Origin: Macrostomum lignano
Taxonomy: Eukaryota
NCBI GenBank assembly: GCA_002269645.1
Contig: NIVC01001789.1
Coordinates: forward strand, 62,001 to 126,000
DNA: 64,000 bases
Reading direction: 5' to 3'
Made by a program: the position numbers and the translations under genes
In this document: positions 12,840 through 57,111 of the stretch, one piece after another
How positions within the stretch are numbered: the stretch's first letter is position 1
Layout of the letters: every line of letters begins with the position of its first letter
Notes under the pieces: model-generated
Told to the model about the DNA's origin: nothing
What the model saw: the letters and a program-made list of their open reading frames with translations, nothing else
Database searches by the model: none

Positions 12840-12954
12840 CCTGTTGTCGTTTTCTGTTTAGCTCGCTAAGTTTATGAGTTGGCTGGCAAAGGTTGATTGG
12901 CTCCCTCATACAGTAGCTTTGGCGCCCCCTGCCCCTGTCACCCCCTCAAGTGCA

Positions 12955-13815
12955 ATGGCGCCCCCATCAGTTACGAAATTGCGCCTCAATATATTGAAAT
13001 GGGGCCGCCGCCCCCATCAATCGAAATAGCGCCCCCATAAATTGAAATGGCGCCCCACCAATTGAAATGGCGCCCCAACAATTGAAATGGCGCCCCCATC
13101 AATTGAAATAGCGCCCCAATCAATTGAAATAGCTCCCCCACCAATTGAAATAGCGCCCCCATCAATTGAAATGGCGCCCCCACCAATTGAAATGGCGCCC
13201 CACCAATTGAAATGGCGCCCCACCAATCGAAATAGCGCCCCCATTAATTGAAATGGCGCCCCAATCAACTGAAATGGCGCCCCACCAATTGAAATGGCGC
13301 CCCATCAATCGAAATGGCGCCCCCACCAATTAAAAAGGCGCCCTATCAATTGAAATGGCGCCCCACCAATTGAAATGGCGCCCCCACCAGTTGAAATGGC
13401 GCCCCCACCAATTGAAAAGGCGCCCCATCAATTGAAATGGCGCCCCACCAATCGAAATGGCGCCCCCATCAATTGAAATGGCGCCCCACCAATTGAAATG
13501 GCGCCCCATCAATTGAAATGGCGCCCCAATCAACTGAAATGGCGCCCCACCAATTGAAATGGCGCCCCATCAATTGAAATGGCGCCCCACCAATCGAAAT
13601 AGCGCCCCCATTAATTGAAATGGCGCCCCAATCAACTGAAATGGCGCCCCAATCAATTGAAATGGCGCCCCAATCAATTGAAATGGCGCCCCAATCAATT
13701 GAAATGGCGCCCCAATCAATTGAAATGGCGCCCCCATCAATTGAAATGGCGCCCCATCAATTAAGATGGCGCCTCAATAAACTGAAATGGTGCCTCCCCC
13801 CTCAGTTGAAATAGC
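12955..13815. repeat. 20-21-bp minisatellite (CAATTGAAATGGCGCCCCAY)
   Basis: Direct inspection. Confidence 0.95.
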
Positions 13816-15787
13816 TACCCAATGTACCCTCAGCATAAATTAGAAAGTCAGAAAAGACAGTAATCTAGGTTTTAATGCAAATATACTAAATGTTCATATT
13901 TCTAAACTAGCCTTTTCTGCACCTTCCCTCAGCCTTTAGTTTCTGTCTCTGTTCCTATGTAAACATGTAAACATGGGTTTGGGCTATTATTGACAGTTGG
14001 CACCAGTGTTTACGCAAGCAGCCAAGTTCAACTGTGGGACCGGAAGTAAACCAGCACTGCAGATCAACATTCCTGTAATATTTGCAAGTTTATTACTTTT
14101 TTCTGGGTAAATAGTATGATATGTTAGATCCTTAAGTTGCGTTATGAATATTATTGCTTAGCTTACTATAATAAATTAAAACCATATTTGTTGGCTAGCT
14201 GTGTTTCAACAAGACGATAACTTGAAATTTAATTTTTATTTATCACCACGATAATTAGTTGTAGTTATGCTCAGTTCAATGTATAGCCATAGAATTTTTA
14301 TTTGTATTATATGCACTTTTCTATATTATATATATATGCCTCCTTTTCTATGCAATACAAAAATACCCTACAGCTGCCGTGTTAACCCCCCAACCCAAAA
14401 TACGGTCGCGAATAGAGAATTCGGGGCAATTTTAAGTGGAAGTGCCCACTTTATACTATGAGTAAATATCGCTGCAACCCAAGGGTTTGTGAGAGAGAGA
14501 GAGAGAGAGAGTTGTGAGCTCAAACTTACCTTACTTCTCTTCAACTTCAGTACCTATCTATGCCAAAAGGCATTTGGCTGCAATATTGACAATTCAATGG
14601 TTTCTGACTTGAGGCTTGACTGCCCGCTTAAGGCTCGCGTATATTCCCTGCTCAATTTTTGCTATGGATATATTGAATTCCACTATCTTATCCGTGGTTT
14701 CCCGGTTGCTTTAGTAATTTATTCTGATTGTTAGGGATCAAATTATAAAACTCTCTAACTCCAACTGGGTTACTAAAAACTTGGCTATTTTAAATACAGG
14801 ATACAAATGTACCCTAATGTACTTTTAGTGCGCCGGTCATTTTAGCACATTTTTGCACAGTCATTAAACAGAATCAGAGTAAAGGTTCAGATCAGAGTCA
14901 GGTCCGCTGTACACGGAATTCTTCGAATTATGAGAAACAACCACATGTTTCAAATGAACCCTAGCATGTGCACATACTCAACAAAATTGAAACACTGAAA
15001 AACTCTAGTCAGTGTCAGTTTAACCTGACTAGGCCTCGCTCCTGACCTGATGATGGGACAGTCAGCTTCGTAAGAGTCGTCTCCCTTCCCCCACTTACTA
15101 GTTAAGACTGCTGCTTTTAATTTTTTAGATTAAAAGTTTATTTTTTTAAACGTTTTTTTCATTAAGGATGTGGTCTAAAATTTTTTGCCAAGAACAACTT
15201 ATTTTATGAAGATTCGACAGTTAAACAATGATAACACTAAACGATGAACACGTTAAATGGGTCTCTGCAGATCTTAAAAAAAAATCCGTTGAAATCATTC
15301 ATTTTCGCGCGCCGCATTTCTGAAGAGTGGCACGCTTCTCTATTGCAGCCAGTCTTCTTTTAATATCAAAAGTGTGACAAATATGATGCGCGGTAGCTTA
15401 ACGACTAAAATCTTGAGAGGTCATTCACAAGTTCACCTCTCTGCCAGATGCTTAGGTCTCTAGGTCGAATGATGATTTTCCATTTTTCTTAGGCCTAAAA
15501 ACTATATGTTGCTCTATCAGTTTCCTCTGCACTATAATATACTTCGGGGCCCTTCACTAAAAAAGTAGTGTGCACGCGCACGCATTTCGGAGTCATAGAC
15601 ATTGATTGATTGACCATTCTGTGTAAGTTCTGTGGTCTAAGCTAGACTGAATAATTTGACTTAAGTCAGCTTCAAATAGGTCTCAATTACTTCATTAAGA
15701 TCTGTAACGATACTTCAACTTAAATTATTTTATAGATATTCAACCTATGTACTAATTCTCTGCAACTTTGCAGCTCTCGCCCAACCC

Positions 15788-16930
15788 ATGGCTACAAATC
15801 CTTCCAACGCGGCGGCGGCAAAGCTGGTCGCAAAGCGTCAAAAAGCCGAGAAAGCTGCACTGCGCCGCATTCGAAAGTGCATGCAGCCGCGCGAGTGCTT
15901 GAAACACGTCGCCGTATTGCTGGACGATCGCATTGCCAATGACCAGCGGCTTGGCCCGTCGATAACCGGCTGTCTGAACGGGCAACAAATTGTTCCATTA
16001 GACGCCGACGAACAGCGACTGTTGCCTCTGCCCGCTATTCGCTGGCGTAGAAACGTTCACGCGTTGGACCCGGCCGCGTTTGCCGATCTGGCTCACGACG
16101 CTTTGCCATCGTCGCTAGCTGCTGCTTCAGTAGAATTTGAAGAGCTCGAGTCCGATTCCTTGCTAATAATGGACGGTCGCCAATTAGTTGAATTGATTCA
16201 GCAGAAGCGGCAGAGTGAGCTGAGCTCATTAGTGTTTCCCGAGCAGCTTGTCAGCACTAATCGCTGGTCGCCCAGTCTTGTCGTTTATGATCTGGAGCTT
16301 CACATAACCCAGTCCAGCCGAGCCGCTGAAGGCAACGCTCTGCGTGCAAAGATGCTGGCCAATTCCGATAAGCCAGCAGCGCCGCCAGCTAAGAAGCCCA
16401 AAGCTAGCACAGCTGATCAGGTCACTCGACTCCAGTGCGAGGAAGCCTTCGTCTCGCTGCAGCTGACTCGCGGTGTCACTGTACGCGTGCTAGAGGACCC
16501 AGTTCAACTGGGCAAACTGGTCTACTGTCTGGCCAAAGCCATTGCCGAGCGGCCTTTCAAAGCTGCCAGACTTGAATCCGTCTTCTCGTTTCACGTTGGC
16601 GCCGGTGTTGGCGCCGGCTGCCGGCTGGAAGAGAGCGCGGACGGAGGCTCGCCAGCTGGCATTGACGAGCTGTGGCGCTGCCAGCTGCAGTGTTTTCCTT
16701 TGGTTACGGCCGAGGTGGCTCGGACAATAATGCGAGCCTACCCGTCGCCTGGCCACTTGATTCGGGCCTACGCCGGGTGCGCCAGCGCCGAGGAGGCCGT
16801 CAGACTTGTGGCCGATCTGCAGGTGTGCAAAGGCACCGGGCCGCTTAGCACTGCCAGGCGACTGGGACCGGAATTGGGGAAACGTATTTACGCGTTTTAC
16901 TCGTCTCGCGATCCGAATCAGGTGCTTTAG
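15788..16930 (+). CDS. EME1: Crossover junction endonuclease regulatory subunit EME1 (single coding exon)
   Basis: PRECLKHVAVLLD, EEAFVSLQL, AKAIAERPFK, LWRCQLQCFPLVTAEVA..IMRAYPSP..LIRAY, VADLQV, RRLGPELGKRIY follow the EME1 ERCC4-like plus HhH2 pattern. Confidence 0.92.
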   Translation: MATNPSNAAAAKLVAKRQKAEKAALRRIRKCMQPRECLKHVAVLLDDRIANDQRLGPSITGCLNGQQIVPLDADEQRLLPLPAIRWRRNVHALDPAAFADLAHDALPSSLAAASVEFEELESDSLLIMDGRQLVELIQQKRQSELSSLVFPEQLVSTNRWSPSLVVYDLELHITQSSRAAEGNALRAKMLANSDKPAAPPAKKPKASTADQVTRLQCEEAFVSLQLTRGVTVRVLEDPVQLGKLVYCLAKAIAERPFKAARLESVFSFHVGAGVGAGCRLEESADGGSPAGIDELWRCQLQCFPLVTAEVARTIMRAYPSPGHLIRAYAGCASAEEAVRLVADLQVCKGTGPLSTARRLGPELGKRIYAFYSSRDPNQVL

Positions 16931-17273: not shown

Positions 17274-18355
17274 TTAAAAGTTCAGGTTGCAATTTATAAT
17301 GGGTAAAATTGAAGAAATTTTCAAAGCACTAGAAGTTAGCATGTGATGCTTGTAGCTCAAATGCATAAACCTGTGGACCGTGTAGGAACCATTCGGAATC
17401 TGTTTAGTCTCGAAATTTGTGCGGTTCAGTCGCCTGCAATGGTCCTGTTTCGGCTTAGACAGCTTTTCTGGTGCTAGACAGAGCTTCTTTAGTCTGTCAG
17501 GAATCCATGCCACGTCCCAGATGGGCTGGAAGGCGTCTGCCTCGGCCAGCATGTTGCCGCACCAGTCGGCAGGTCGGTCGCTCTTCTTCAGAGCCGTGTA
17601 CTTCTCGTAGAATGTGTGCAGCATTCTGGGTCCCGTGACGTGCACCGCATCGTTATGAACTCTCTTGGTGTTACTGGCCCAATTCTGCTCGAACCATTGC
17701 GGCCAGTTTGTTAGCACGAAGCTCAGGAAGCTGTGATTCGCTCGGCTCATCATCACCGCATTCGAAATCAGTGCCGGAAGATTGAACGTGAAGACTGCGT
17801 GCTCAGTAGGCTCCTGACTCCACACTGCTGACTCACAGTCGAAGTTCGGAGTCAGCCCCACTCCCTGAAGCTGCGACGGTCTTAGCAGCGGTGTCGGATC
17901 TCGAAGCAGCTCCACATCCGTGTCGATGTACAGACCGCCGACGTGGTGCAGCACAACCAGACGGCCGATGTCCGATCGCTCCAGCCCGTTGACCAGCTTG
18001 CGGTAGCTTTGAACAAGGTACGGATAGTGCTTCGAGATGAGCTCGGAGATCTGCTTGTCGTCCCAGTGCATGAAGTGCCAGGCCTGGATTCGGCTACCGT
18101 TACTCAGCCGTGCCCAGGAGCGCACAATGGGAACCAGCTTGGCTGGCACTCGGCCGTCTTTGCTGGTCCAGTGCACCAGCGCCGGGATGGAGTCCGGGAA
18201 CTGGGAGGGCAGCTCGCTGCAACTTGAATTCTTTAAGGCTGACGAATCGTTTTGCCATTCTGATTGAGTATTTGTAGTTGGCCTTTTATTTAGATAGATT
18301 ATCAGCTGTATCGCAATCGTCAGTATTATTAGAAGCATCAGTTTTCGGCTATTCG
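17274..18355 (-). CDS. GT32 (DXD) glycosyltransferase paralogue 1, exon 2
   Basis: TM segment, IPALVHWTSKD, RSDIGRLVVLHHVGGLYIDTD, ISNAVM, TGP. Acceptor TTTTTAG| at 18356, phase 1. Confidence 0.9.
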
Positions 18356-18763
18356 CTAAAAAGATATAGATGGTAATCACAGGTATAGTTGCAGTCAAGG
18401 GCGTTGCCAGAGAGAGGGGTCTATACGGTCAATTGAAGGCTTGTTCTAGCCACCTTTTACTGCAGCCTTCTTTAACAATACTTCTCGACCTATTACATGT
18501 ATAACCCGACTATTCCACTAATCACAGACACAGCTATACTAACTTGCCATGGAACTTCAGTATTTCTTGATTCTGTACCCAGCGCTAGAGTCGTCGATTG
18601 CGGCGGCTTTCGAGTATCGATAGATCAAATTAACAGATGTTTGTCTTTCGGTACGTAGCACTGTTGTTGGCTAGTCAGTCAGACTAAATAAAATTCACTT
18701 ATGTCCAAAAAATTGTTAAAAGGTATATTTGTGCCCACTTGATCCAAACGAGTACATACTTAC

Positions 18764-19583: not shown

Positions 19584-20647
19584 TTAAATTGCATCGTCAA
19601 TTATTGAATCAAAGAAAAAATCGGAAGCAATCATCGCATTCTTGCTGACAGAGCAAAGGTTTCTGATCAGGCAGTTAAAGTTTCGTCATAAGCAATAAGC
19701 AAGCTATGAAAATATCTTTTCTTAGCCCAGTGGAATCTCTCGTATTAGGCACTTAAAGATTGAATGATTCCTGGACGATCACAAAAGCGGAAATGATATC
19801 TGCACTCGCACTCAGATGTTAATCAATTCGTTCGAAATGTAAACTGCAAGTTTAGATGTCTACTTCTAGGTTTGCCGGTCCCTCAGTTGAGCTTCTCGGT
19901 GAGAAATTTGCGTGCTGTCCATGTTCAACCTTACTTAATACTGTGTACACTCCTTATTGTAAGGCTTCTCCCTGTGACATATTTGCCACGAACGCACGCT
20001 CACTCTATATTGAAATTGCAGTAATGGGTTAAATGGGCAAACGCGTCAGTAACTTGATAGTCTATGGCTGTCTTCCATGCATTTGAATGGGGCAAAGTCT
20101 TCTGTAAAACGAGCGAGGTTTGAGATTGCGAGAAAACCGACTTGGCGCTCAGGCCTGACAATCGATATATTTTATAAGCCGAAGATTGAGGTGGGTTTTG
20201 GGTGTTGCACACGCACGGGCGCAACCGCACGTTGCAAGCAACCACCCCCCATACACAAGCACGTACAAATATGACTACGAACAACATTAGAATATTTATA
20301 GGTGCATAGAATGCTCACACTTCAGTAGAGCTTTTAAATGGGGCAGAGGCGTCAGTGCATAGCTTTAAATGGGGCAGAGTCGTCAGTGCATAGCTTTCTA
20401 ATGGGGCAGACGCGTCAGTTAGATGGTTTTGAAAAGAATCACTACTGCTACTACTATTAGTATAATCGATGAATTGATTGATTGACTGCTTTACCTTTCA
20501 AAATATAAGTATTTACCTAAAATACTAAGTGTGGATTTAATTTTATTGAGCGGCGGCAGCAGCGATGGAGTCGAACTGGACAGAAGCCTGTACATATGAT
20601 TTGCCAGTTATTAATTGGATCACCGCATTGTGTGCTGTCGTAACAGA

Positions 20648-21896
20648 ATGTCTCCTTGGCAAGACGAGTTTACTGACAGCGACGACGAGCGCATCGCAGC
20701 TGCATTAGATGAGTACGAGCGAGAGAGAGCCGCTGCTGCCCAGAATACTGCAGGCCCCGTGTCTTCTGTCCGCAAGCGAGAAGTTTCCGCCGATGATATC
20801 CCACCTGCTGGTCAGCCGGCACAGAAAAGGCGGCGGAACGCCACGACGGACGACGATGAAGCCGACGAGTTCAGTGTGCTGGCGTTTAGTGGTGGAGCAA
20901 CGCGGCAGCCACCACAGCCGACACTGCCGTCACAGTCAACTATGCAGCAACAGTCATCCGCCTCCTACGAGCTTGATGAGATGGACTCGGACGACCGGGC
21001 GGCTCTCAACGCCATGCTCGACTACAAGGCGTCCATGAGCCCTGCCGTGCCGCAGCAAAAACCGCCGCCGGAACCTGCTGCAGCTGTCGCCAACCCTGCC
21101 GAGCTCTCAACGCTGCCGAAACCGCCAGAAGTAGCCGCCGAGCTGCATCGTCAACAGCAGCAGCAACAGCAACAGCAGACTGAATGGCAGCGAACGCAGC
21201 AGCGGGAGCCGTACTCGCAAGCAATCTCACGTTGGTCAATGCAGACCATGCCTCTGGCGAGCCAACGACGGAGCTGGAACCGGCCTGAAGCTCGAGCCGC
21301 CGAGGAGCTTCGACCGGACGAACTGTCCTCGTTAAGCTACAGCCCGTCGTCATCTGCTGCACAGTTAATCCGAATGCTACAGCGCTCGGAGTCTGGCAGT
21401 ACCATCAGCAGCAGCAGCAGCAGCAGCAGCTTCAGCTCCCAACGCGGCAGAGGCGCAGCGGCAAACGGTCGACGCAGAGGCGTCGGCGTCCGGCAAATCG
21501 GCCAGAATCCGCTGCTGCAGGCCGACGCGTTCCGCCAACAGTTCACGGTCACTCGATCAGCTAGCCGTTCGCTACCGCTGTATGGTGCCGCTCCGGTACA
21601 GCGGCTGGTTGAGGACACCGGAGTACTAACTGTGCGGCGCTATCTGCACGTCATCCACATCGATAATTTGCGCTTCATCGGTGAGTAGTAGTAGACTGCT
21701 CTTCTCTCTGCTTAACTTTATACTTATGCATGCAACGCCACAACAATCCCATGTACAGGCCGTGCAAAGGTGTACTTGGGCGAGGCGCTCGAGCCGCACT
21801 GCACTGAGTTGCTATTGGCGTCCAGTCCGGAACTTAACGTCGGCATGGACGAGTCGTGTTACCGCCGGCTAGTGGAGGACCCGCTGGCTGTCGACG

Positions 21897-21934
<38 letters not shown>

Positions 21935-22920
21935 CGCACCTTGTCGGGCTACATTCGGCTTGTGACCAACACCGCCGGCTGGCACGTTTACGAGCTGCTG
22001 CACAGACTGCTGCCGGGATCCGAGGTGGGCCGAGGTTTCGTGCTCAACAACCTCACAACGCTGACAGTCTGCGGTGTGCGTTCCCCTGATACGATAGTCT
22101 CACGCAGCACGACGGATACCCGCTCCTGGTCGGCATTGGCGTATCTCAATGCAGCATGCTGGTGCAGGCAACGCGCTGGGTGCTCTCCTACCGCGGACGG
22201 CCAGCCTGCCAAATAATACCGATGGCTTTCTGCTAGCTCACCAGCAGATGCGGGCGGCACTCCTTAGTCCTTACGATGCTTAAGGATATCCAGCGCCAGC
22301 GTCGTATCCGTCAGGAGCGCCCTCAACGCTGCTCGGCTTGCTCAGAAGCACTGAAGCAGACAATGCGACACCTGAAGCGCCGTCAGTGCCCGCTCCGGGT
22401 GGCCGTGTGCAATGCCCTACTCCGGACATCAGGTGTCGTGTACCTTTACGGGCCATCAGGAGTCGGAAAAACCACGGCCGTTGAGCGCCACTGGGGCCTA
22501 GAGTGAATATTCTGCCCAACAATCAAGCCTTTCGGTGGCAACGACTTCATCTTTGATGGGCTCGACATCAACAGGCACTCTGTCATCTTCATTGACGAAA
22601 TTCGGCCCCAATATTTTGAAGGGAGTAGTGACCTAGAAGCGACGCTACTGCGGCTGTTGAATGGGAACTCGTTTCTAATCAACACGAAGCATCAATCGCA
22701 TGTGTACATCGACTGGGCGCAAAGACTCATAGTAGTCCTGGCCGGGCACGCTTCGCCTGAAGAATACAGTCCGGATTTTCAGCGCCGGCTGCGGAACGAG
22801 AATAATGTCGCTATAGAAATGGATCACGACATTGAAGAATGTCATGGGGAGTGCCAGCCAGTACCTGATGGCACCTACGTTGCTGCCGCCGACGATGAGC
22901 CCGACAATGGCATGTACTGA
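20648..22920 (+). pseudogene. CRESS-DNA-virus-type Rep (SF3 helicase) with acidic/low-complexity N-terminal extension; spliced, decayed
   Basis: Intron 21681-21758 (GTGAGT...TACAG) joins ORFs in frame. Walker A YLYGPSGVGKT (GPSGVGKT 22450-73), FDG, Walker B VIFIDE, LLRLLNG..INTK, motif-C region IVVLAG and Arg finger FQRRL lie in one frame with TGA at 22504. Two apparent frameshifts fall between ~22150 and 22280. HUH nuclease motifs are only weakly recognisable. Confidence 0.78.
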
Positions 22921-23044
22921 TCTTTTGATCGATCGATTGATTAATGTTCTGTTTCTTGACTAATTACTTGGCTAGTACTACTACTATTAGAGACTCTGGC
23001 CTAATAACGGTTCTTTGTTTAATAATCAATTCATTTATTCAGCT

Positions 23045-23578: not shown

Positions 23579-25162
23579 CTAACGCATGTCCATCGTACAG
23601 TTCATACTGGACACCTCGGGCGGAGGAACAGTGACTCCGCGCGCAACGAGGCTCGGCCGGATGTAGGCGTCGTGCAGGCGCAGCAGGGCGTCGCAGAAGA
23701 GGTCGGGCAGCACCATTGTGGCTGGCTGGCCAGTGTGCCCGGCCTTGTGCGGAACTTCGGTCGGCGGCAGCACCAGGTGCGAGTGCCCAACGAGATCTTC
23801 TTCAGTGGCACTGATGCTGGTGTCGCGAAACAGCTGGTCCCGGTCGTCCGCCGCCCTGTGTCGCACTGCACGGTTAAGCAGATGCTGCCGCCGCAGATAA
23901 ATCCACGGCAATAGACTAATTGGCTGTTCCACGCTGCAGAAGAAAACGAACTCCTGCACAATGCGCCGGACAAATACCATCTTGGCGCACAGCTGATTGT
24001 CGTCGTCGCTGCGAGACGAGCTGTTGCTGCTGCTGCTGCTGCTGCTCCAGTCTCCAGTTTGCGGCAGCGCCTCCCAACTGTGCTCAAGCAGCATATTAAA
24101 AAACCGGCCGCGCCGGTTAAAAATGTTGCACACATCGCTACGTTTAATATAGCTGGCCATATAGCCCATCTGCCGACCATGGTGGCCCAGCTTAAGGAGC
24201 TGCTCCTGGAGTGAGCGTACAGCGGCGAACTCACCTTTGGCTTCGTCGATCAGCGAAGACATGCGCACAACTGCAAACTGCCTAGCAGCGAGTGGGTTGT
24301 CGCTCATCAGCTGCTGCTGAGCTCGCCAGCCGGCCTGCTCGGCATCCCCTCTGTCGTCGGCATCGGCGGCGGCGGCGGCACAAAACAACTCTGATTGGCG
24401 CAGTCCGATCGCGTCGAGCACCTGCTCAAGACAGCGATTGCCGCGCAATGTGAGCCAACCCTCCAGGGAGAGCAGGATGGTAACTATCTCCTGGCACTTG
24501 CGGCCCGCCGTTGAAGGCGCCAGCTTAAACTGATTGGTGACCACCTCCAAGCCAAAGACGCCAGCAATGAGGAAAGGCCGCAGCACTAGGTCGGCCAGAG
24601 TGAGCTGCTTGCGCTGCCACAGCCGCTCCAGTGTTGCCTCAACGGAATCGCGGATCTTTCCCCAGCGGCGTTTGTGGCTTTAGTTGGCGGAGATGCGCAT
24701 CTTAGTCGGCGCCGTCCACCAGAGCACGGACAGTCGGTTCAGCGTGGCCTCAATCGACGGCCGGTCGCCGAGCGACACTTTCCTGGCTGGGTGCTCCTTG
24801 CTGAAGTGGCGAAAGACGGAGGCGGAGCTGGCAGACTGACGCTCGCCATGGCGTCGCCGCTGCTGGCACTGGGCGCTGCCGACGAGGTCTCCTCCTCAAC
24901 ATTGTCAGCAGCAGCAGCAGAAGAAGAAGAATGAGGCTTCAGCGCCGCCCACTTTGCCGCTTTCGCCCGGCGCTGCTTTGGTGGCGTGGCAGGTAGTCTG
25001 ACGAGCAGTTGTTGGCCATTGCTGATGTTGGCAGACGAGCTGCTGGGTCGCTCCAGCGCGATATCAGCTGTCTGCAACGACAATGGCGAATGACTGGCCA
25101 ATGGTGGCACGACTGTCGGCGCAGCTGCAACAGCAGCAGCAGCAGCAGCAGTAGAACTGTCT
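23579..25162 (-). pseudogene. Tyrosine-recombinase-like gene, 3' part
   Basis: LAPSTAGRKC (core-binding-like), MGYMASY..IFNRRGRFFNML, VPHKAGHTGQPATMVL..YIRP. In-frame TAA at 24680-82 and a frameshift within ~24790-24895. The C-terminal HxxR/H/Y region is absent. Confidence 0.6.
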
Positions 25163-28100
25163 TCTGGTCTTGTCAATTGGTCTTCCAGTTCAATTGCAAC
25201 GGACTGCAGGCCCGCCGCACGGAGCTAGCCGCAAGACTTGCCCGTAGCCAACCCGTCGCTGTCCTGCTCCAGGAGACCAAGCTCCGCCCAGGAGCGGCCT
25301 TCCACCCGCCACAGGGTTACCACGTGGCGGCCCGGAAAGACGGCGAGGCCAAACACGATCCCGAGCCCGCCGCCACCGCGAATACCACCCAGAGAACTAA
25401 CGATGGAATGCCTGTGGGAGAGGAGGCTCCGACCACCCGCCGCCTCACTCGTCCTAGGTGCCGCCTCCGATGACCCCAGGACAAGACCGGCTGGTGCAAC
25501 GGCTGCAGAAGTGGCCGCTCCGCCTGCTCCAACCGTGACCTCCCGTGGCCTGCCCCATCTGACGACCCTCCGGTCCGCACTCCCCCGGACCCGCCGGAAG
25601 CGCGGAGAGCGTCGGAGAGCGGGCCGGCCAACAAGAAAGCAGGCCGGTGGCACTGTTCGGACTGCAGCAAGGCCATCCGCAGGAACAGCTACAGCGTCCA
25701 GTGTACCAGCTGCAGCGGGTGGCTCCACCTCAAATGCAGCGGCCTCGCTACCGTCAAGCAATACTCAGTGTCATTCGAAGGCCCGTGCTGCAGACACGCG
25801 AACCAGCCCCCAGCTCAGCGTCGGAACGCTCAAGCCCCCCGACCCGCCGGGGGAGCCAGCCGGCCCGACCCGCCGCCCCTTCCTCAACCTGAGGGCGACG
25901 CCGAACCTGCCCCGAACGGCCGAAAGCCAAAAAACTGCAAAAACAAACAGCGCCCGACGGGGAGGGGAGGAGTGCTGATCCTGGTTCGCGATGACGTCCC
26001 CTTCAAGAACCCTAAAGTCAGCAGGGGCGGCCTGCTCGACTACGCGGCGGTGACCATCTGCCCGGCTGCCGTTGGCCAGATCCAATTTTTGGCGGTCTAC
26101 GCTCCGCCCAATAGCAACCAGCGTGCGGAGGACAACTGGCTCCCAGCCTGGTCAGACATACCGGTCGCGCCCCGCACGGTGATTGCCGGCGATTTCAATG
26201 GCCATGGACACTGGGACAGCCACCAACCTGAGGACGAGAGAGGAGACAGCATCGAGGGGTGGGCTAGCGACCGGGGCCTCCACCTTGGCAACCGCGAGGA
26301 TGCCCACACGCGGACCAACCCGGCGACAGGCGGCCTGAGCTGCCCGGATATCACTTGGTGCTCCGGCGACCTTGCCGCCTACGTCAGGACGTCGTGGAGC
26401 ACCTCCGAGGACCTCGGAAGCGACCACCTGCCTATTACCTTCACCCTCTCCAGAGACAAGCAGGCCAAACGTCTCCAACGACAGGCCCAGTGGAGCTACG
26501 CGAAAGCGGACTGGACGTCCTACGCGGCCCGACTGGACGCGGAGGAGGAGGCTTTGCAAGGCATCACCACCGCGCAGAAATCGAGCACGGACGCGGACCA
26601 CCAACAGCTCTGCGACATCATCCTCGTAGCAGCGACCGGCAGTATCCCGCGCGGCGCGCGTCGCAACACCGGCAAACCTTTCTCGACCGAAACGTGTGCC
26701 GCCGCTTGCAACCAGTGCAGCGCCGCGCGGAAAAAGGCCGAGCAGACCAAGACGGTGGAGGACATCTCGGCGTACCACCTCGCCAGACGCCGCGCCGATG
26801 AGACGATCAAGGCCGAGAAGCTCCGCATCTGGGACGAACGAGTCGCGGAGTTGTCCGTCAACAGCGACCTTTTCGGTCTGGCCCGGGCGATGCGGGGCGA
26901 ACCCCCACCGCCTCCCCCCAACGCGGCCCTTGCCATCCCGGCCGATGAGACCAGATGCCGCCGGCAGAGGACTGCGGTCACGGACAAGGAGAAAGCGGAT
27001 GCCTTCTGCACCCTGTACGCGGACGTGTCTCGCGTGGAGCGCAGGAGGTCGGATCGGGGGGTCAACAGGTGCGCCTACGCCGCCATCAAAGCGCGCTGCT
27101 GCGAGCCCGACCACAAACAGCAGATCTGTGGCGCCTTCTCCGCCGTGGAACTTAAGCAGGCCCTGAGGTCGCTGAAATCCAGGAAGAGCCCCGGCCCGGA
27201 CGGAGTGTCCAACGAGATGCTCAAGCGTCTCCCCGAACGGACCGAGCAGCGACTACTTGACCTGATCAACAAGGCCTGGCTCAGCGGACACTGCCCCCAC
27301 CAGTGGCGCAGGGCGATTATCATCCCGATCCCGAAACGCGGCAAACCGGCTGACGACCCGGGTTCGTATCGCCCCGTCGCCCTCACCAGTTGCATTGCCA
27401 AGGTCGCGGAACGGCTGGCGCACCAAAGGCTGAACTTCCTGCTGGAATCCAAGGGCATTCTCAGCAAAGTCCAAGCTGGTTTCCGCAAAGGACGCTCGTG
27501 CGAAGAGCAGATCGCCCGCATCGCCCAGCTTATCTTCGACGGGCTGGAAGAGACTCCCGCGCTTAGAGCGATCCTCTGTTTACTCGACTTCAGCAGAGCC
27601 TACGACAAGGTGTGGCGGAAGTCTCTGATCTGCAAGCTCGAGAAGCTGGGAGTCCCCGCCTGCGTCCTGCGCTGGACCAACAGCTTTCTCAGCGACAGGA
27701 GAGCGCGCGTCCGATTCGGCAATAGCCTCAGCAGAGAGCGCATCTTCCGGGAAGGCCTGCCCCAAGGCTCGGTGATCGCCCCTCTGCTTTGGCTGGTCTA
27801 CGTCAACGACCTGCCAACTGCCATCGCGGAAGCATCGCCGGAAGCCGAGATCAGTCTGTATGCCGACGACTCGGCCATCCTGGCGCGCCATACGGACCTC
27901 GAAAGCTGCGGGCACATCGTGCAACCGGCTCTGGACTCCATGGCCCGCTGGTGCGACCAGAACAAGGTCGTGCTCAGCACTGGGAAGTGCAGTTACAGCA
28001 CTTTCACGCTGTGCCCCAACGAGAACCGCGGCAAGACCAGAGTCGAACTCAGCATCGGCGGCAGCGAGCTTCGTTTCGAGCCCAACCCGGTCTTCCTCGG

Positions 28101-29694
28101 CGTTAAATTCGACGACCACCTTGGGTTCGCGGAGCACGCCAAAGATACCCGTCGCCGCATGGCTGCCAGAAGACGCCCACTGCAGGCCATCGCACACCGG
28201 CAAACGGGTGCGACGCAGAGCATCCTCCGCACCGTTTACGTTGCCAATATCCGAGCTGTGGCGGACTACGGCAGCGGCGTATGGCTTGCGGGAGAGGCAC
28301 CGAGCACCAGGCTCCTAGTCGAGCGCCAGCAGAACGCATGCGCGCGCCTGATTACTGGCTGCATATCCACGGCCCGCACTGAAAATCTCCTTAGCATCGC
28401 CGAGCTGCCGCCCCTCAGCCACGTGGCCATCGAACGCGCGTGCACGCTGAGAGAGCGGATGGCTCGCCTCCCGGACGGATCACCATCGCAGAGCATCGCG
28501 ACAGCGGTCAACACCCCGCGCCTCAAAAACCGCGCCTTCGAAGCCGCCAACCGGCCGAATCAGGCCGAGGGGGTCAATCAGCGCCTCCCGGACAGGGACC
28601 TCGACGCCCGACGTCGATTCCGCGGCTGCTGGAGGCGCGCGGCGCGGGAGCTAGAATGTTGCGAGGTATTGGACGGGACGCCCCGGGCCCACCGACCCCT
28701 CGGTCCCCCACCGTGGGAAGTGGCCGAGGCCGGCCGCGTCCAGTTCGATGTCTCGCTCAGCAAGGTTATCAGCCGCGACATGCCGGCGGCCATGAAAGCC
28801 AACATCGCCAGGCAAATCGTCGGCCCACTGGAGACCTCCGGACACGTCATCTGGACGGACGGATCCGCGGCTGGCGGTTTCACGAACGGAGGCGGTGCGG
28901 CGATCGCCCAGTGGCTACCGGACAACGACGCCCGCCTCGTCGCGGCTGGCGCGCTCTGCAGCAGCTTTACCACAGAACTCTGCGCCATCAGGGAGGCCTT
29001 AGACATCGCCCGCCACCCGGCGCCGCCCACGGGCGCTATAACTATCGCCACGGACAGCCTCAGCGCCATCCAGGCGCTCAGCGCCGGACCCCTGTGCCAG
29101 CAAAACTCAGTTGCCGCGGACTGCTGGAGTAAACTCCTCAACCTGATCGCCATGGACCGCCCTGTTCACTTCGCTTGGGTGCCATCCCACTGCGGGGTTG
29201 CCGGCAACGAGGCGGCCGACCGCGCCGCCGCCAACGCGGCCGGGCTCGACCAACAGGCGGTGCCGATCGAGCTTGACGCGGCAAGGGCAGCCGCTCGTCG
29301 CTCTCGCAGAATGCTGGACGCCAGAGTCCTGCCGCCGAGACTACAGCCGCCGACCAGCCTCCCTAGACGTCTCCAGGTCCTGGTCAACCAGCTCCGGTCC
29401 GGCGCCAGCACCATCAACTTTAGCACCAGACACCGCCTGGGCTTGGAACAGTCCCCCGCCTGCCCCGACTGCGGCGCGGAGGACTCGGCTGAACATCTGC
29501 TCCTCCACTGCCCCCGCGGTGACCACTTCCGGAGAAGAAGCGGCCTGGCCCCGAGCGACCTGATGGGGTCCCCGGAGGCCATCGTCAGACTACTACGCAG
29601 CATGGGGCGGCTCCCCTCGGGGTCCACGCCCCCCTCCAGATCGGCCTAGCCGGAACGGAGGCGCCCCGAAGAAGAAGAAGAAGAAGAAGAAGAA
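25163..29694 (+). mobile_element. Non-LTR retrotransposon, I group (Ingi-like): APE(+PHD)-RT-RNaseH-CCHC, (GAA)n tail
   Basis: 12-bp TSD GTAGAACTGTCT at 25151-62 and 29695-706; (GAA)9 tail. Motifs QFNCNG, LQETK, GDFNGH, SDHLPI, KSPGPDG, YRPVALTS, QAGFR, GLPQGS, YADD, WTDGS, TDSLSA, WVPSHCG..GNEAAD, CPDC..H..HC. Confidence 0.95.
25180..29649 (+). CDS. Single retrotransposon ORF with one in-frame TGA (25471-73) and no ATG at the 5' end
   Basis: Frame 1 is continuous from the APE N-terminus through the PHD finger (CSDC..CTSC..WLHLKC..GPCC) into the 25768 ORF. Confidence 0.85.
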
Positions 29695-30277
29695 GTAGAA
29701 CTGTCTGGCTGCAGCATCTGCGGCTCGTCGTCAGCTTCCTCCTGCTCCTCAACCGTCGGGCAAAGCAGCAGGCGGCGGCGGCGATCGTTTGATGAGAAGC
29801 AGGCAGCGCGTCCCATTGCATCTACAGCGACCATCAACCTATCGATGATCGCTGTATTATCCTCTTCAAAGATGACATCAGCAGTCGCCGCCGCTACCGA
29901 TGCTGATGCATCATCGGGGTCCGCTGCCGGAGGTACTGACTGCGCGGCGGAATCGATTGAACCCTGACAGCGATGGGCCCCAAGCCGACACCGCGCCTCT
30001 CCGCAGACGGGGCAGACGGCGATCACTTCCAATCGATGGCTGGCTTTGGTGCTGCGGCTGCACTTGATCGCCAACCAAACAATGTTTCTCCGCTGCTTGC
30101 CGTCTGCGGCAGACCATTGTGCCTCCGTAGGGCGCATGCGCTCTGGTACATCACTCAGCTGGAAGCTCTGCAGGACCTCTTTCTCATGGCGATTTATATA
30201 GTGGCGCTTCAAGTTCCACCAGGTACAGTCTCGCCACACACAGGGCATTCCGAATTTCGGCGGCATTTCGAAGCCAT
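29695..30277 (-). pseudogene. Tyrosine-recombinase-like gene, 5' part with zinc fingers
   Basis: ATG at 30277 gives MASKCRRNSECPVCGETV, then a frameshift into WNLKRHYINRH (C2H2); second finger CPVCGEARCRLGAHRC. Joins 25150 in frame (PDSST|AAAAAA) once the retrotransposon and one TSD copy are removed. Confidence 0.7.
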
Positions 30278-32629
30278 TTCCTCCTAAGTAAATATATATT
30301 TTCTAATTATTAAGCGCCAATACAATTTTTTCTACACTACTACTACTCAAGTGCCCTCCCCATCAACCTCCATCAAACCTTTAGCACCCAACCCCATATT
30401 TCTTAAGCTGAAGAAGCACCCATCCCCCAGATTTTTTCTTTAATTTTGCAGCAATCGCATGAGTGCATCTGACGAATGCTATGTTTGTATGACTAGGTTC
30501 ATATGCACTTGTCTGGCTGGCTGGCTGGCTGTTTGTCGAGATTTGGGGTTTCTGCCATAAACTATAGCTATCTTTTAACCCAAGCCTACTGGCTATAGCT
30601 GATTCCCTTTGCTTCAGTAGTTGTCCTTTGTTTGGATAGTTCGGCCATAGACTAAAGTACATGGCTGCGGATTCTTGCTCGGGAGGTTAGACCATAAACT
30701 ACTTTTTGGCGGACAGGTTTCTCGCTCGGCTAAAGGCAGAGCTACTCTCTTTCAACTATCTCGCTCCTTTATTCTGTAGTGCTTTAGCTCTGGTCGTAAG
30801 CTTCTGTTCTTCTAACACCACCCTTTGTTTGAGGTAAGTTTTCAGTACTGCTTTGACTATGTTACAGGCCTGTAACTTCTTACAGGCCCCAAGCGTCATT
30901 AGTTGAATTATTTGAGTAGCTATTATCTATCTATCTCTTATATTTGATCGGAGGCCCCTTCCATGCTGCATGCAATTTTCTTATTTTCTTGGCTTGCAAG
31001 AACTCCTGCCGAGATTGTCTCCATTTTTATTCAATACCGTCCGTTATATCCTTGCACGTCGATTTAGTCTTACAAGCTAGAGGGGAGCAGCTCAGCGGTA
31101 AACAGCTCTGACTCCAGCACCACGAATCATTCATTTGGGGCTTGTGCAATGACTCAAACATTCAGTCATCACCCCGACGCTGTCGGCACCTTAAAGGAGA
31201 CGAAAACATGACTAAGGACACCCAAAAGAGATTATTTTTTAGCCATTTTAGTAACATTTATTACTTGATCTTTAGTCCACACAGAAATTCGATACTTTTT
31301 TTGTTATTTTTTCTCTTGGCAAAAATTCGGTTCAATTTACAGTTCAGTTAACTAATTGCGTCATCACGTCGAGTGATGATAGACTGTTTGTGAGCCTTAG
31401 CTGAGAATGACCAGGAGTTAAAGTTTGCCCATTATTGATGATTGATCAGTGACATCAAAGACATTCGCAAAAGGATGTCCATAGTCGCGTGGTGTAATCT
31501 GTTGAAGGTGCCAATGGCGTCTGAGTGATGACAGAATGCTTGAGAGACTAGCTGAGAACGTCCAGCAGTCGAGTTTTGCCCACTGTCGAGGCTTGATCAG
31601 CGAAACTAGAGAAATCCGCATCAGGGTGTCCATAGTCACCTGGTGCCACCTGTTGAAGGTCCAGAAGCTCCGCCTGGGTGAAGGCTAGTGACCAAAGAAG
31701 TCAGTGCTGATGCAGACACATGTGATCGACGTGCTGATGAAGTTTGGAGGCTTGGCAAGGCTGCACTGAGGCGCAGTGCTGATTGGCGCACAGGGGTGTA
31801 CTGAATACACTAGCGCTTATGGAAAAAATCCGACTTTTTGGCAAAATCGTAGAATATCTCAACGGTCCAGAGGGCTGGCGACTTTATTCTTGTTTGAAAA
31901 GGTGCGCAACAGAAAGTTAGCCCGTGTTTTTTTGTGTGTCTGCGTTGCTCCGTTCCGGCGCAGCCAAGAAAATTGTCAGGGGGGGGATTTTTCCCGTCTG
32001 GTAGTTTTGTGCACCTTACGACAGGATTATTACGAAGTACCATGCACCGGCGGTTTTTTTAACGATCCAACGATCCAGCGAACCCTTCAATCGAACCGCA
32101 TCGCATACCAGTGCCCATACGAGAGGTGGAGGCCCTAATGTATGGCACCACCCCAGCAGAAGTGCATTCAGTAGGTGAACAATACTCAACCGTACATCGA
32201 GGTGTCTAGAGCTGGTCGACACCTTTGGCTGAATGACAACAAACTGACATTCAGAGAACCAACTGACCCCCTCTCTCTCTCTCTCTCTCTTCATTACAAC
32301 GACTGTGCGTCGGTGTGTGCATTAAACTGTATGTGTTCACTGCTCACTGTTCGTTCATTCACTGCTCACTGTTCGTTCATTCACTGCTCACTGTTCGTTC
32401 ATTCACTGCTAAATGGATTCCAAATAAACAGTGTTGTCGGATTCAGCGCGCAGGAATGTCGTTCCCGCACTCGTTCGCGTACCGGAATGCAACTGTCTAT
32501 GGTAAAAACGCCATTGAAATCAAAGAGAAAATCAGTGCAGGAATGATGTGCGATTCTTGCACTATAAAGGAAACGGAACATTTATTATATAGTATATTTA
32601 GTTCATTTAAATTTACTTTGGTTCACTTT

Positions 32630-35183: not shown

Positions 35184-36775
35184 TAGTCTATGGCACAATT
35201 ACAGTATTACCCAGGCTTTAAGGGCGATAATGGGAAAGCCAGAGGGTGCCGAAAATCCCCCAAATTTGAATGGTATGGTAGCCCCGGACGAGTGTCTATT
35301 GTCGCGCGAGTTTTTATGTATCCCCCACTTGCCCCGGGCGAACGTCTATGGTCTCAGTGTAAATTTCATTTATTTGCATCGGTGCAAATAAACGGTTTAT
35401 TTCAGTCGCCCAAAGACAATATTAAAACGCTGCTTCTAACTGCTCACTTGGCTACATAGAGAGAATTGTCTGAAACAGCAAATTTCACTTTTATTTTCTT
35501 CAGCAAATGACCTTCAATATATAGGCTTTGTACGCACCTCCAGAATGAAACTTTTAAGTAGGTAATTTAGATCAATCTTCGACAGTTCGCTGATCTCCTT
35601 CAAACCATTAGCGAGGATCCACCTCCAGTGCACCAGGCCGCTTTCTTCGTTTCGTGCCATTCAATATTCAATATTTCTCAGTCCTGCTACAGTTGTATTT
35701 AACGATTATAAACTAACAAAACCAACAGCAACAGGAAGTTCAGCATAGTAAGAAATAGAAGCCTTTTCTAAGCACTCCCTCAAAGACGATTTCAACAGTG
35801 TTAGTGTTACCGTTGATTTTAATCCTCATTTTCTTTGCAGGATTAGCACTCACTACGTTGCTTTGTTCCATAGATTCAACAGAGCGTTCAGGCTCGGTTT
35901 CAATAGACGGACTTGATGACTGACCACAAGAAGACCAGAAGTGCACTTTAACATGGTCTTGTACGTTAAACTGAATATAGCGCTCAATAGCTGTCGAAGA
36001 GTGTCCTGTAACACGAGCGACGTCCTCTCTAGCGAAGCCAGCACGGTGTAGAGTACTTGCGCAAGTCTTGCGTAGAGACTGATTAGTGTACCTTCCAGTC
36101 ACTCCAGTTAGGGGAGCCGTTAATTCACGAACAATACCGTCCAAGCTGTGCCGGCCGACGGGTGCAACTACCAGCAGCAGGATTCGTTGCAGCGGATTAT
36201 TTACTTTCAAAATATCTTAACACTACACCTTTTCACGTTCAATTTTGATCAAAGTCCAGTTCTAAAAAAACTAGCGGAAATTCAATTCAGACAATTCAGA
36301 CTCGGGCCCAGTCTAACCCCAGCTCAAAACATTCTAACCGAAGTAAGGTTTAGCCATAGACAAAATTATCCTCAGTCTGAATCACAGAATCAAAGCATGA
36401 AATGAAGATTTCAAGAAATTGGGCTACTTTTCCACAGACGAAATTCACTCACTTTCTTATTTAAATTTACATAGACATCTTCTTTTCTTACCATGGACAA
36501 AGCAGACACTTTTTCTGATCAGGCTGTATTTGCACTGACGAATTTCACTTGCTTAGACGAATTCGAAGTCACTTTCTCTACAAATTTACCATAGACACTC
36601 ATTCTCTTCCCCTTGAGCGCTATATAGTTTTGCAGACGCTGACAAATTTGAACTCACTTTTGACGAATCGCGAAGTTGAAAAGGTATATTATGTAGGAGA
36701 CGAAAAAATGGATGAACTGCTGCAGTTAGATTCACAACACTTTAGCCACTCAGTCACAGCTTGCGCCATAGACTA
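35184..36775 (-). mobile_element. Crypton-like tyrosine-recombinase element remnant
   Basis: YR C-terminal remnant inside; flanked by TAGTCTATGGC (35184-94) and GCCATAGACTA (36765-75). Confidence 0.65.
35740..36210 (-). pseudogene. Crypton (DUF3504-like) tyrosine recombinase C-terminal fragment
   Basis: PVGRHSL..VREL..TGVTGRYTNQSLRKTCASTLHRAG..EDVARVTGHSSTAIERY matches the Crypton TNHSLR..GH..Y pattern, with His to Gln. Confidence 0.82.
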
Positions 36776-37534: not shown

Positions 37535-38767
37535 CTACAGCTTGCATTTGAGAATTGGCAAAATTGACGATATGTTCAAACTGCAGGCCAGATCCATGCT
37601 GTCCGAGTAGCTCAGGTGCAGGAACCTGTGCACCGTGTACGAGCTCTTCGGAATGCGCTTCGTCTGGAATTTTTGACGAATCAGACGCTTGCAGTGGCGA
37701 CGTTGAACTTTTAGAAGCTTGTCTGGCCTCTGGCAGAACTTGATCAGCTTCTTGGGAACAAATATCTCGTCCCAGATGGGCTGGAATGCGTCACCCCTGG
37801 CCAGCATGTTGCCGCACCAGTCGGCTGGCTGGCTGCTCGGCTTCAACGAGGCATATCGTTTGTAGAATGCCTGCAGCATTATGGGCCCGGTCACCATTAC
37901 CGCGTCGAAGTGGGTCCTGTTCACTCTCCTGGCCCAATTCCGCTCGAACCATTTCGGCCAGTTCTTCAGCACGAAGCTCAGGAAGCTGTGATTCGCTCGG
38001 CTCATCATCACAGCATTCGATATCATCGAGGTTAGGTTGAAAAGGAACACTGGATGCTCTATTGGCTCCTGACTCCACACTGCTGACTCACAGTCGAAGT
38101 TCGGAGTCAGCCCCGCTCCCTGAAGCTGCGATGGTCTCAGCAGCGGTGTCGGATCTCGAAGCAGCTCCACATCCGTGTCGACGTACAGACCGCCGACGTG
38201 GTGCAGCACGACCAGACGGCCGATGTCCGATCGCTCCAGCCCGTTGACCAGCTTGCGGTAGCTTTGAACAAGGTACGGATAGTGCTTCGAGATGAGCTCG
38301 GAGATCTGCTTGTCGTCCCAATGCATGAAGTACCAGCGGTCAGCGAGGAATCCGTCTGTATTCGAGCTGTTTCTGTCAGCGCTGCTGCTATCGTTGAGTC
38401 TGACTTCGAGCAGTCGCCTCCATGAGCGCACAATGGGAATCAGCTTGGCTGGCACTCGACCGTCTTTGCTGGTCCAGTGCACCAGCGGCGGGATGGAGTC
38501 CGGGAAGCGGTAGGGCAGCTCGCCACAAGTTCGACTGAAGGGTAAAGGCGTTAGCCGTGTAATGTTTATCGTTGAGTTGTCCGCGGAATCCGTGTCATCG
38601 AGACATTCGATGGGCTTAAAGAACTTTTCCGCCATTAAATTCGTAAGAAGAAGCAGATTGAATGCAGATAGCAGCGTCAGAATGAGCAACATGCTTCGGC
38701 TTTTGCCGGGCCTTGTCCAACGGATAAGCATTCTAGTATTTGAAACAGCGATGTAATCTGTAAACAT
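37535..38767 (-). CDS. GT32 glycosyltransferase paralogue 2
   Basis: Same motifs as paralogue 1 (YVDTD). A phase-1 acceptor TTTACAG| lies at ~38760, but in-frame ATGs precede the TM segment and no first exon was located. Confidence 0.9.
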   Translation of the reverse strand: MFTDYIAVSNTRMLIRWTRPGKSRSMLLILTLLSAFNLLLLTNLMAEKFFKPIECLDDTDSADNSTINITRLTPLPFSRTCGELPYRFPDSIPPLVHWTSKDGRVPAKLIPIVRSWRRLLEVRLNDSSSADRNSSNTDGFLADRWYFMHWDDKQISELISKHYPYLVQSYRKLVNGLERSDIGRLVVLHHVGGLYVDTDVELLRDPTPLLRPSQLQGAGLTPNFDCESAVWSQEPIEHPVFLFNLTSMISNAVMMSRANHSFLSFVLKNWPKWFERNWARRVNRTHFDAVMVTGPIMLQAFYKRYASLKPSSQPADWCGNMLARGDAFQPIWDEIFVPKKLIKFCQRPDKLLKVQRRHCKRLIRQKFQTKRIPKSSYTVHRFLHLSYSDSMDLACSLNISSILPILKCKL

Positions 38768-45432: not shown

Positions 45433-45974
45433 GGAGAAATGAATACAAATAGCTGTAAAGCTGTATTAGTAAATACAAATACAAATGTTTTTTTTAGAAT
45501 TTATTTTTATCGTTACCTTTGAATCACAAATTTTAGCAATAGCATTTTAGCAACTAATCAAGCAGGGAAATCAAGCAGGAGCCTGCATCAAAGGAAGGGG
45601 AGGGGCCAGGGTACAGATCACAACACTCAGTCTGTTGCGTATTTTGGTGGATCCGGAAAAGGCAGGGTGCAAGATGGAGGGTGTGTGCTGAAGCCCCGGC
45701 AAACAAAGAGCAATCCAAATATACTAAATCTTAACATTCTAAGCCAATTCAAGTAATTTTCCCACGCTCTTCATTTCCGATTTTCAAACTTAGAAATGTA
45801 AAAGATAGGGGTAGTGGGGGTTTGAGGGCCTTTTTGCGAACACTCAGTTCCATATTCATGGCCAGCCGGAATGTGGGTGTACCGATAAAGTCTCATCGTT
45901 ACAGACAGAGTGGCGCCACATAGCACAGCATACCCTCCTACCCACCATCACAATGTATCTCATAGGCAAGATAA

Positions 45975-55915: not shown

Positions 55916-56074
55916 TCGATGATGCACTCATTCTGCATATTCAGAAGTAGGCACTGTAAGCTAAAAAAATTCATTTGGTGATTTAGCTGTCACAAGAGTT
56001 CATCAACCGGTTGGTGATCAAAGTGCCGCGCAGGGTCCGGCGCCACCAGGGGGGCAAGCTGAGGGCATGGCGAC

Positions 56075-57045: not shown

Positions 57046-57111
57046 AAGTAGAGAAAGGTATCAAGCAAAAAGCATGTTTATAATCGTTTTATAATGCGAG
57101 TCAATACCTAC

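Follow-up and report, generated by a model that had tools for sequence, protein, structure and literature searches.

What is a viral type of replication gene doing in a flatworm chromosome? The stretch analysed here (the window) comprises 64,000 nucleotides of Macrostomum lignano contig NIVC01001789.1 (positions 62,001 to 126,000 of the forward strand; G000:C1789:62001-126000 within a 764-Mb assembly). Between host-like genes on one side and a long interspersed nuclear element (LINE) on the other, it carries a gene whose product resembles the replication initiators (Reps) of CRESS viruses, whose circular, single-stranded DNA genomes encode a Rep. The original prediction described a spliced, circovirus-like Rep with a possibly dead or very divergent nuclease, adapted to its host. 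Instead of such a domesticated gene, we found one of the two genes of a mobile element whose target sites also occur empty. On balance, we favour a capsid-less element that couples a nicking-dead, CRESS-derived Rep, serving as an origin-binding superfamily 3 (SF3) helicase, to a linked recombinase. It is apparently an undescribed kind of mobile element, and the window holds a decayed copy of a real gene belonging to this mobile family.

Five near-identical copies of the window Rep gene were found besides the window itself; C51 and C1938 are the window locus on homologous contigs, and C150, C283 and C3646 are independent insertions. Similarity of the window to C150 and C283 starts at 19976. A left end is common to C150, C283 and the window locus, and a right end to C150, C283, C3646 and C277. 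Joints and splicing were followed in six sequencing runs out of 24, whose types (RNA-like or DNA-like) were assigned by guess. In run X13 (DNA-like), a joint skipped 7,951 bp with 5 letters shared, and four loci (L164, L165, L166 and L168) were an empty paralogous site with a single core, the core being defined from filled and empty C150 sites, showing that the two genes moved together, as a unit of 7,951 bp, to a place that is empty in four paralogues. No empty site was seen for the window locus among the three homologous contigs, and no right terminus of the window copy was found in a scan of 24000-45000. In C957 and C1267 the 5-mers differ between the two ends, which argues for a crossover at a short core that tolerates mismatches, as with Tn916/Tn1549-type integrases, and not for a DDE target duplication. 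The end 5-mers also do not fit HUH insertion without duplication (PMC10288648). All nine ATG ORFs (open reading frames) of at least 100 aa in the C150 element lie within or overlap the two genes, and no free-standing ATG ORF of that size was present there for a capsid, although a small multi-exon gene could still be contained.

The second gene is likely a tyrosine recombinase, as suggested by concordant but weak lines of support. Every subfamily has a large ORF nearby that combines a C2H2-like finger with conserved residues (R, H-K, R and Y). The R, H-K and R columns of the alignment were invariant and the Tyr near-invariant; relative to the R-K-HxxR-H/W-Y set, R, K, R and Y were kept whereas the His positions were substituted. 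The top 22 listed Foldseek rows for the partner model were all Cre, Tn1549 Int or XerH, and weak hidden Markov model (HMM) matches were obtained to XerC (1/8), phrog_1 integrase (2/10) and PF00589 (1/10). A wide search with the low-confidence model returned helical bundles alone, which is no evidence against the fold, and a word-limited search found no homologue outside the genome. The ratio of nonsynonymous to synonymous substitution (dN/dS) was 0.21 for the recombinase gene (window vs C150). Of the 37 Rep places, 17 had at least one of the 47 recombinase places no more than 10 kb away, against 0.046 expected. The 7,951-bp unit with its 5-bp core and linked likely recombinase bears out the earlier suggestion that integration is recombinase-based rather than Rep-based. 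Window and C150 are 91-95% identical in the Rep gene and 72% in the recombinase gene, which suggests that modules were swapped between subfamilies. The LINE disrupts the window recombinase gene, which has also lost about 1 kb at 23608/23609, including the last catalytic motifs. A recombinase-only deletion derivative of the window subfamily, with a recognisable right end, was observed at L112, L113 and L114 (C275, C280 and C4797). Comparison of C2367:88001-108000 with C157:560001-580000 revealed modules 8-10 kb apart in opposite relative orientation with inverted repeats in between, and C267 held two Rep modules without a recombinase nearby.

The Rep gene begins with an ATG at 20648, directly behind a splice acceptor (20645-20646), which opens a long acidic, polyQ- and polyS-rich ORF. 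The ORFs and the 78-nt GT-AG intron were located as predicted (Table 1). The N-terminal extension is indeed long and acidic, although shorter than the 340 aa first proposed. Exon 1 probably ends with the coding sequence for strand one of the nuclease-fold domain; judged by eye from the intron-free C2367 subfamily, the intron appears to be placed within this domain, not ahead of it. All eight exon 1 indels between the window and C150 were multiples of 3, and dN/dS of the extension was 0.61 (window exon 1 vs C150) and 0.80. A contig of run X5 (RNA-like) joined exon 1 to exon 2, skipping exactly 78 nt bounded by GT..AG, with a depth of 21 and 129 letters on the short side. The X5 contigs had 0 differences from the C150 copy over L109:930-3353 and lacked its 81-nt version of the intron, so splicing was demonstrated for the open-frame paralogue and not for the window copy. 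The predicted junction was therefore recovered from RNA-like data, but in C150. A contig of X1 retained the intron (read-through), and X12, X13 and X14 contained no splice joint at the intron. The C150 copy of exon 1 was transcribed in X5. In X5 and X7 the transcript starts with an exon in the C150 flank, spliced to the acceptor right before the Rep ATG; by eye, this exon resembles exon 1 of a Crypton-type gene that continues past the right end. Rep expression may thus be read-through, since the first exon of the transcript is outside the element. A short motif occurs in direct orientation on both sides of the Rep gene (20444-20460 and 22976-22989, by eye), with a similar run near 30335-30350.

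Comparison with the other copies established that the gene is real, with an open frame in C150, whereas the window copy is a pseudogene with three frameshifts and one internal stop. The indel near 22096 was seen relative to C150, C283, C3646 and C1938, the further frameshifting indels lie near 22191 and 22261, and the in-frame stop is in the helicase region (22504-22506). C51 has the stop and two of the three frameshifts in common with the window.

A helicase search of the genome gave 50 matches from 59 candidates, which were collapsed to 37 places by removal of 13 second-exon or duplicate rows. They fall into four M. lignano subfamilies, 25-35% identical to each other, all with a long low-complexity N-terminus and with intron positions that differ among subfamilies. 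The helicase motifs follow in SF3 order, as predicted: Walker A at 22450-22473, Walker B at 22582-22599, motif B' at 22645-22665 and the Arg finger at 22777-22791 (coordinates hand-counted from the ORF listing). Ahead of the helicase, a CxxC was present in all 7 spanning rows of alignment A1 and a downstream Cys was invariant in 8/8 rows; this segment is a possible zinc site.

The predicted absence of HUH motifs holds throughout the family. At the position of the nicking Tyr, the family has S in six rows, R in three, A in two, and W and K in one each, so Tyr occurs in 0/13 family rows compared with 82/85 of the others; HxH plus Y was present in 79/85 non-family rows. The Asp five residues after the Tyr position was kept in 13/13 family rows. 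Motif II columns are gappy in the family (5-6/13 gaps), and none of the 7 family rows that span motif II has HxH at the aligned strand. In the window, the motif III stretch lies at 22096-22113 in a different frame, with Ser at the Tyr position. The relic of YxxK proposed earlier (22133-22153) is off-frame, because it lies downstream of the frameshift near 22096. dN/dS of the dead domain was 0.21 (C2367 vs C267, 136 codons) and 0.17 (C1024 vs C2956, 82 codons); that of the helicase was 0.10 (C1024 vs C2956), with 0.43 and 0.77 in two comparisons that had fewer than 10 changes, and two further comparisons were saturated. Judged from these alignments and ratios, HUH and Tyr were lost family-wide and the dead domain is under purifying selection.

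Searched against 1.84 billion proteins, a profile built from 8 family rows gave 200 matches at E<=0.001. Among the best 150 of these 200, the leading outside matches were pieces of the same dead family on contigs of 0.9-3.4 kb (JGI, ENA, Logan), some of which seem to end where an intron would be expected, and the next-ranked relatives were intact HUH+SF3 Reps. When the family was aligned to 18 intact Reps, hhalign gave 99.92% over 291 columns spanning nuclease, oligomerisation domain and helicase. The intact-Rep profile matched geminivirus Rep nuclease structures (7vg8, E 3.7e-5; 1l2m, E 1.7e-4), and its helicase part matched AAV, B19 and E1 helicases. By this homology the family protein is of CRESS-type Rep ancestry, as the original prediction had it. 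Pfam labels over 98 aligned rows were DUF5906 (50), RNA_helicase (23), PPV_E1_C (15), Gemini_AL1 (6), Parvo_NS1 (5) and Viral_Rep (1). Members of a subgroup with the same C-terminal Cys motif are mostly encoded on contigs roughly 2 kb long; one cluster comes from the rotifer Rotaria.

In a helicase tree (FastTree, 132 sequences, 124 columns; 6 proteins without canonical Walker A, those <250 aa and one p97-like protein omitted), the 11 family rows were monophyletic (0.81), with 108 unclassified Reps as their sister group (0.97). Of the five outside "family" rows, four were helicase-only fragments in which the nuclease part was not seen. All 6 Viral_Rep-labelled proteins fell outside the 119-sequence group that contains the family (support 0.97); the description as circovirus-like is accordingly replaced by a relationship to unclassified Reps. 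The proposed helicase phylogeny thus yields a placement, but a rough one, since sequences were sampled by the family's own profile without named references. Family members had no PF02407, PPV_E1_C, polyomavirus or Parvo_NS1 Pfam match. Single-sequence searches with Rep gave at most weak AAA/RNA_helicase matches in Pfam, the genome's own protein alone among 5.8 billion proteins, and P-loop noise in the PDB. In the Atlas, CRESS-like and unnamed clusters were reached at 0.90-0.94, with recognition under its threshold. Two metagenome scans and one viral scan for the genomic context of relatives gave no match. In a second viral scan the matches were four ordinary CRESS contigs, all of them distant; two were inspected. 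The IMG/VR contig L129 (8313 bp) has two different CRESS-like Rep genes with long acidic N-terminal extensions and two capsid-like ORFs.

How would such an element propagate? In the mechanism that we favour, the recombinase would release a double-stranded circle, the dead HUH fold would bind the left-end repeats, and a helicase hexamer would melt the origin. Replication of the circle by host polymerases would proceed without a rolling circle, in the manner of papillomavirus E1 or polyomavirus T antigen, and the recombinase would reinsert copies at sites like its 5-bp core. The acidic extension would act as a disordered regulatory and nuclear-import region. The 31-bp repeats are candidate origin iterons or recombinase arm sites; unrelated tandem repeats occur in the C957 subfamily, beside its left end, and in C1024, upstream of the gene. 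The 31-bp repeats also hold G-rich pentamers adjoining an AT tract, easily by chance, which we take to recall the pentamers bound by polyomavirus T antigen. Whether this is a new class of integrative plasmid in eukaryotes seems to us an evenly balanced question. Its Rep, of single-stranded DNA virus origin, would have gone, independently of papillomaviruses and polyomaviruses, through their transition from nickase to origin-binding helicase, with the capsid lost, introns gained and a recombinase paired, giving an excising, self-replicating double-stranded DNA element that occurs beyond Macrostomum, possibly at Crypton-associated sites.

Several observations weigh against a replicating two-gene element. 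The replication, origin binding and helicase activity of the family protein are deduced from its sequence, and in Macrostomum members the motif C Asn is replaced by His. The low-confidence AlphaFold model of Rep (pLDDT 45.3) matched no HUH fold, which is itself no evidence against the fold. The sole transcript observed initiates in a flanking exon outside the element, and recombinase RNA coverage was sparse. No circle (right-end-to-left-end) joint was detected in 4 runs on the C150 element, in contigs that drop rare forms, and Rep copy numbers are low for an efficient replicon. Recombinase matches were absent within 10 kb of 20/37 Rep places, counts over these 37 places are not independent because many are duplicated haplotypes, and the relative orientation and spacing of the two genes vary among subfamilies. 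For the partner, Foldseek E-values were 0.047-0.55 with a model of mean pLDDT 48.6, HMM E-values were 0.008-0.06 with no single significant match, and a sequence search of the PDB gave no match.

Low copy numbers and the missing circle joint would suit another view, that the Rep-derived protein is an accessory factor (for end binding, remodelling of the recombinase complex, or help with excision and directionality) in a cut-and-paste, Crypton-like cycle with no episome. Recombinase-only derivatives with element ends exist (C275/C280/C4797, C277), as this view would expect, but these can be mobilised in trans. The SF3 motifs and oligomerisation domain are under purifying selection across subfamilies only 25-35% identical. 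Furthermore, "helicase" occurs 0 times in the Crypton paper (PMC3212892), indicating that such elements move without one. We consider the accessory role unlikely, though it deserves some weight.

A helper-dependent rolling-circle satellite, nicked at a nonamer-like right-end site either in trans by a co-infecting CRESS virus's active Rep or by the recombinase, and using the dead Rep as a helicase only, is improbable. It would account for the right ends of C150 (L109:8455-8465), C283 and C277 (L111), whose last bases plus core are, by eye, one base off the canonical CRESS origin nonamer (PMC6186406). The element boundary also coincides with the nick position of such nonamers. However, the right ends of C957/C1267 and of C275 are unlike the nonamer, the resemblance was noticed post hoc in three copies, and no intact Rep was present among the 50 own-genome matches, which were examined in part. 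Within the favoured two-gene reading, the nonamer-like right end is possibly a relic origin reused as an attachment site.

Related fragments occur in other samples, and adomaviruses carry virion modules apart from their replicases, which are E1-like or CRESS-like (PMC11071296); on these grounds a larger or multipartite virus resembling adomaviruses or PEVE could have left the insertions as integrated segments or deletion forms, its capsid genes lying elsewhere. In the complete 7,951-bp copy the ends are exact and there are two genes only, and reading by eye of about 20 kb surrounding the other subfamilies, most of it unscanned against libraries, brought up no capsid-like ORF, which makes a viral segment hardly probable. 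Introns, the low-complexity extension, splicing to a flanking exon and the dead window copy look host-like, but a domesticated host gene, or a functionless viral fossil beside a recombinase by chance, is very improbable, being largely refuted by the empty sites and opposed by several insertions of independent origin, by a linkage that greatly exceeds chance and by the purifying selection measured between mobile subfamilies.

Among known systems, the capsid-less two-gene element is closest in its proposed working to the E1 and large T antigen helicases. Both E1 and large T antigen have a long N-terminal extension, and T antigen has a zinc site ahead of the helicase. Like them, the Macrostomum protein joins, by homology, an inactivated HUH-fold domain to an SF3 helicase. 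Unlike them, it has no PPV_E1_C or polyomavirus Pfam match, no capsid and integration by a linked recombinase. According to PMC6668415, the SF3 helicase of E1 and large T lies behind an HUH-derived domain without signature motifs, a precedent for an HUH domain turned structural, and the origin of this change from nickase to structural origin-binding domain is described as obscure. Loss of nicking in the Macrostomum family looks independent of E1 and large T, given its whole-length sequence tie to intact CRESS-type Reps. By analogy, the element may operate as a Crypton-like integrase joined with an initiator of the E1 or T antigen kind, although it belongs to neither family.

Unclassified CRESS Reps (P0026, P0028 and P0152-P0157, contigs of about 2 kb) share the order of nuclease fold, oligomerisation domain and SF3 helicase and are alignable throughout; in contrast, the Macrostomum family has lost HUH and Tyr, has an extension of 300-500 aa and subfamily-specific intron positions, and belongs to a capsid-less 8-kb integrated element. 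Homology to Cressdnaviricota Reps was found over nuclease and SF3 helicase, with neither HUH/Tyr nor a capsid. The lack of PF02407 and the position of Viral_Rep proteins outside the family's group separate it from Circoviridae/Nanoviridae-type Reps. Bacterial pCRESS are capsid-less integrative plasmids with a CRESS-like Rep (PMC6668415); those are prokaryotic with HUH Reps, whereas the Macrostomum element is animal, spliced and nuclease-dead. Replitrons are eukaryotic transposons with Rep-derived genes and an active HUH transposase without a helicase (PMC10288648), and the active HUH that they share with Helitrons is absent from this family. The geminivirus-like transposon of Tuber melanosporum has a Rep-derived gene, terminal inverted repeats (TIRs) and transposase ORFs (PMC3198968). 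The PEVE and PIVE of planarians are also flatworm virus-like elements with Rep-like ORFs, likened here by description. PEVE, which had been named as an obvious comparator, turned out a poor one, as it is grouped with parvovirus-like elements (Liu et al. 2011; PMC3198968). A PF01057 scan of the M. lignano genome gave nothing, with no match for the positive control either.

Cryptons have a tyrosine recombinase, no TIRs, terminal direct repeats of 4-6 bp and a proposed circular intermediate (PMC3212892). Similarly, a 5-bp core stands at both ends of the present element and is single in the four empty sites. Unlike Cryptons, the partner has no DUF3504 match, reached 0.11% in hhalign to local DUF3504-type recombinases, bears a zinc finger and is accompanied by a helicase gene; this comparison covered the DUF3504/CryptonA type, with groups F, S, I, V and H left out. 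The Macrostomum element thus fits none of the tested transposon groups. A search of the full-text literature, with supplements, Repbase and subscription journals outside it, brought up neither a tyrosine-recombinase element with a nuclease-dead Rep nor CRESS-like elements in Macrostomum. The family is apparently an independent case of the nickase-to-structural transition, still alignable residue by residue to intact relatives from single-stranded DNA viruses. With a transcribed copy, empty target sites and alignable intact relatives, in an animal that is kept in the laboratory, that transition is open to direct study. If the two-gene reading is true, it adds a kind of eukaryotic mobile element that combines recombinase integration with its own replicative helicase, without polymerase or capsid.

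Table 1. Features of the window, with Crypton-type genes near other copies (positions are those of the window unless a locus is given)
Feature	Position	Strand	Remarks
EME1-like gene	15680-16930		long single ORF; PF21292, E 1e-22
Glycosyltransferase gene (PF04488)	17274-18428		paralogues near 37538-38531, 54180-54908 and 61685-62606; four in the window
Left end	19977..19987	+	5-bp crossover/coupling core 19977-19981, then conserved first element bases
Four 31-bp direct repeats (repeat family D14)	20082..20426	+	near left end
Rep exon 1	20648..21680	+	acidic polyQ/polyS low-complexity extension, ~325-330 aa; basic patch like a nuclear localisation signal
GT-AG intron, spliceosomal	21681..21758	+	78 nt (C150: 81 nt; C283, counted by hand: 80 nt)
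Dead HUH-fold domain and oligomerisation helices	21759..22260	+	disrupted by frameshifts near 22096, 22191, 22261
CxxC plus additional Cys	22330..22420	+	between oligomerisation domain and helicase
SF3 helicase	22450..22920	+	Walker A/B, motif B', His at motif C Asn position, Arg finger
Convergent gene	23579..30266	-	N-terminal C2H2-like zinc finger, likely tyrosine recombinase
Non-LTR retrotransposon (LINE)	25163..29693	+	PHD, APE, RT, RNase H; sits in recombinase gene; foreign to the element
Last stretch common to related elements C275/C280/C4797	30826..30977	+	
DUF3504-type Crypton genes/fragments	L012:6850-8098, L099:4218-5597, L097:5668-6303, L095:1145-2143, L013:7226-8153, L112:1443-1742, L101:708-1018, window 35779-36165		

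DUF3504-type Crypton genes or fragments were found within about 5 kb of many copies, and at C150 the insertion point appears to be within a Crypton-type gene. This genome is rich in Cryptons (at least 150 matches scored, from 573 candidates). Adjacent DUF3504 Cryptons were considered as a part of the element and rejected, the C150 site being empty in four paralogous Crypton-linked loci.

The LINE in the window is flanked by a 13-bp target duplication (25150-25162 and 29694-29706), has an intact-looking ORF of 1391 aa, and is missing at the corresponding site in C51 and C1938. The C2956 element holds a related LINE, and an insertion of another kind, 4.7 kb long, interrupts the same recombinase gene in C51. 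Minisatellites were also present in the window, with related 20-21-bp arrays and a 183-bp tandem array at 12941-13794, 56067-57046, 58040-60064 and 43960-45437.

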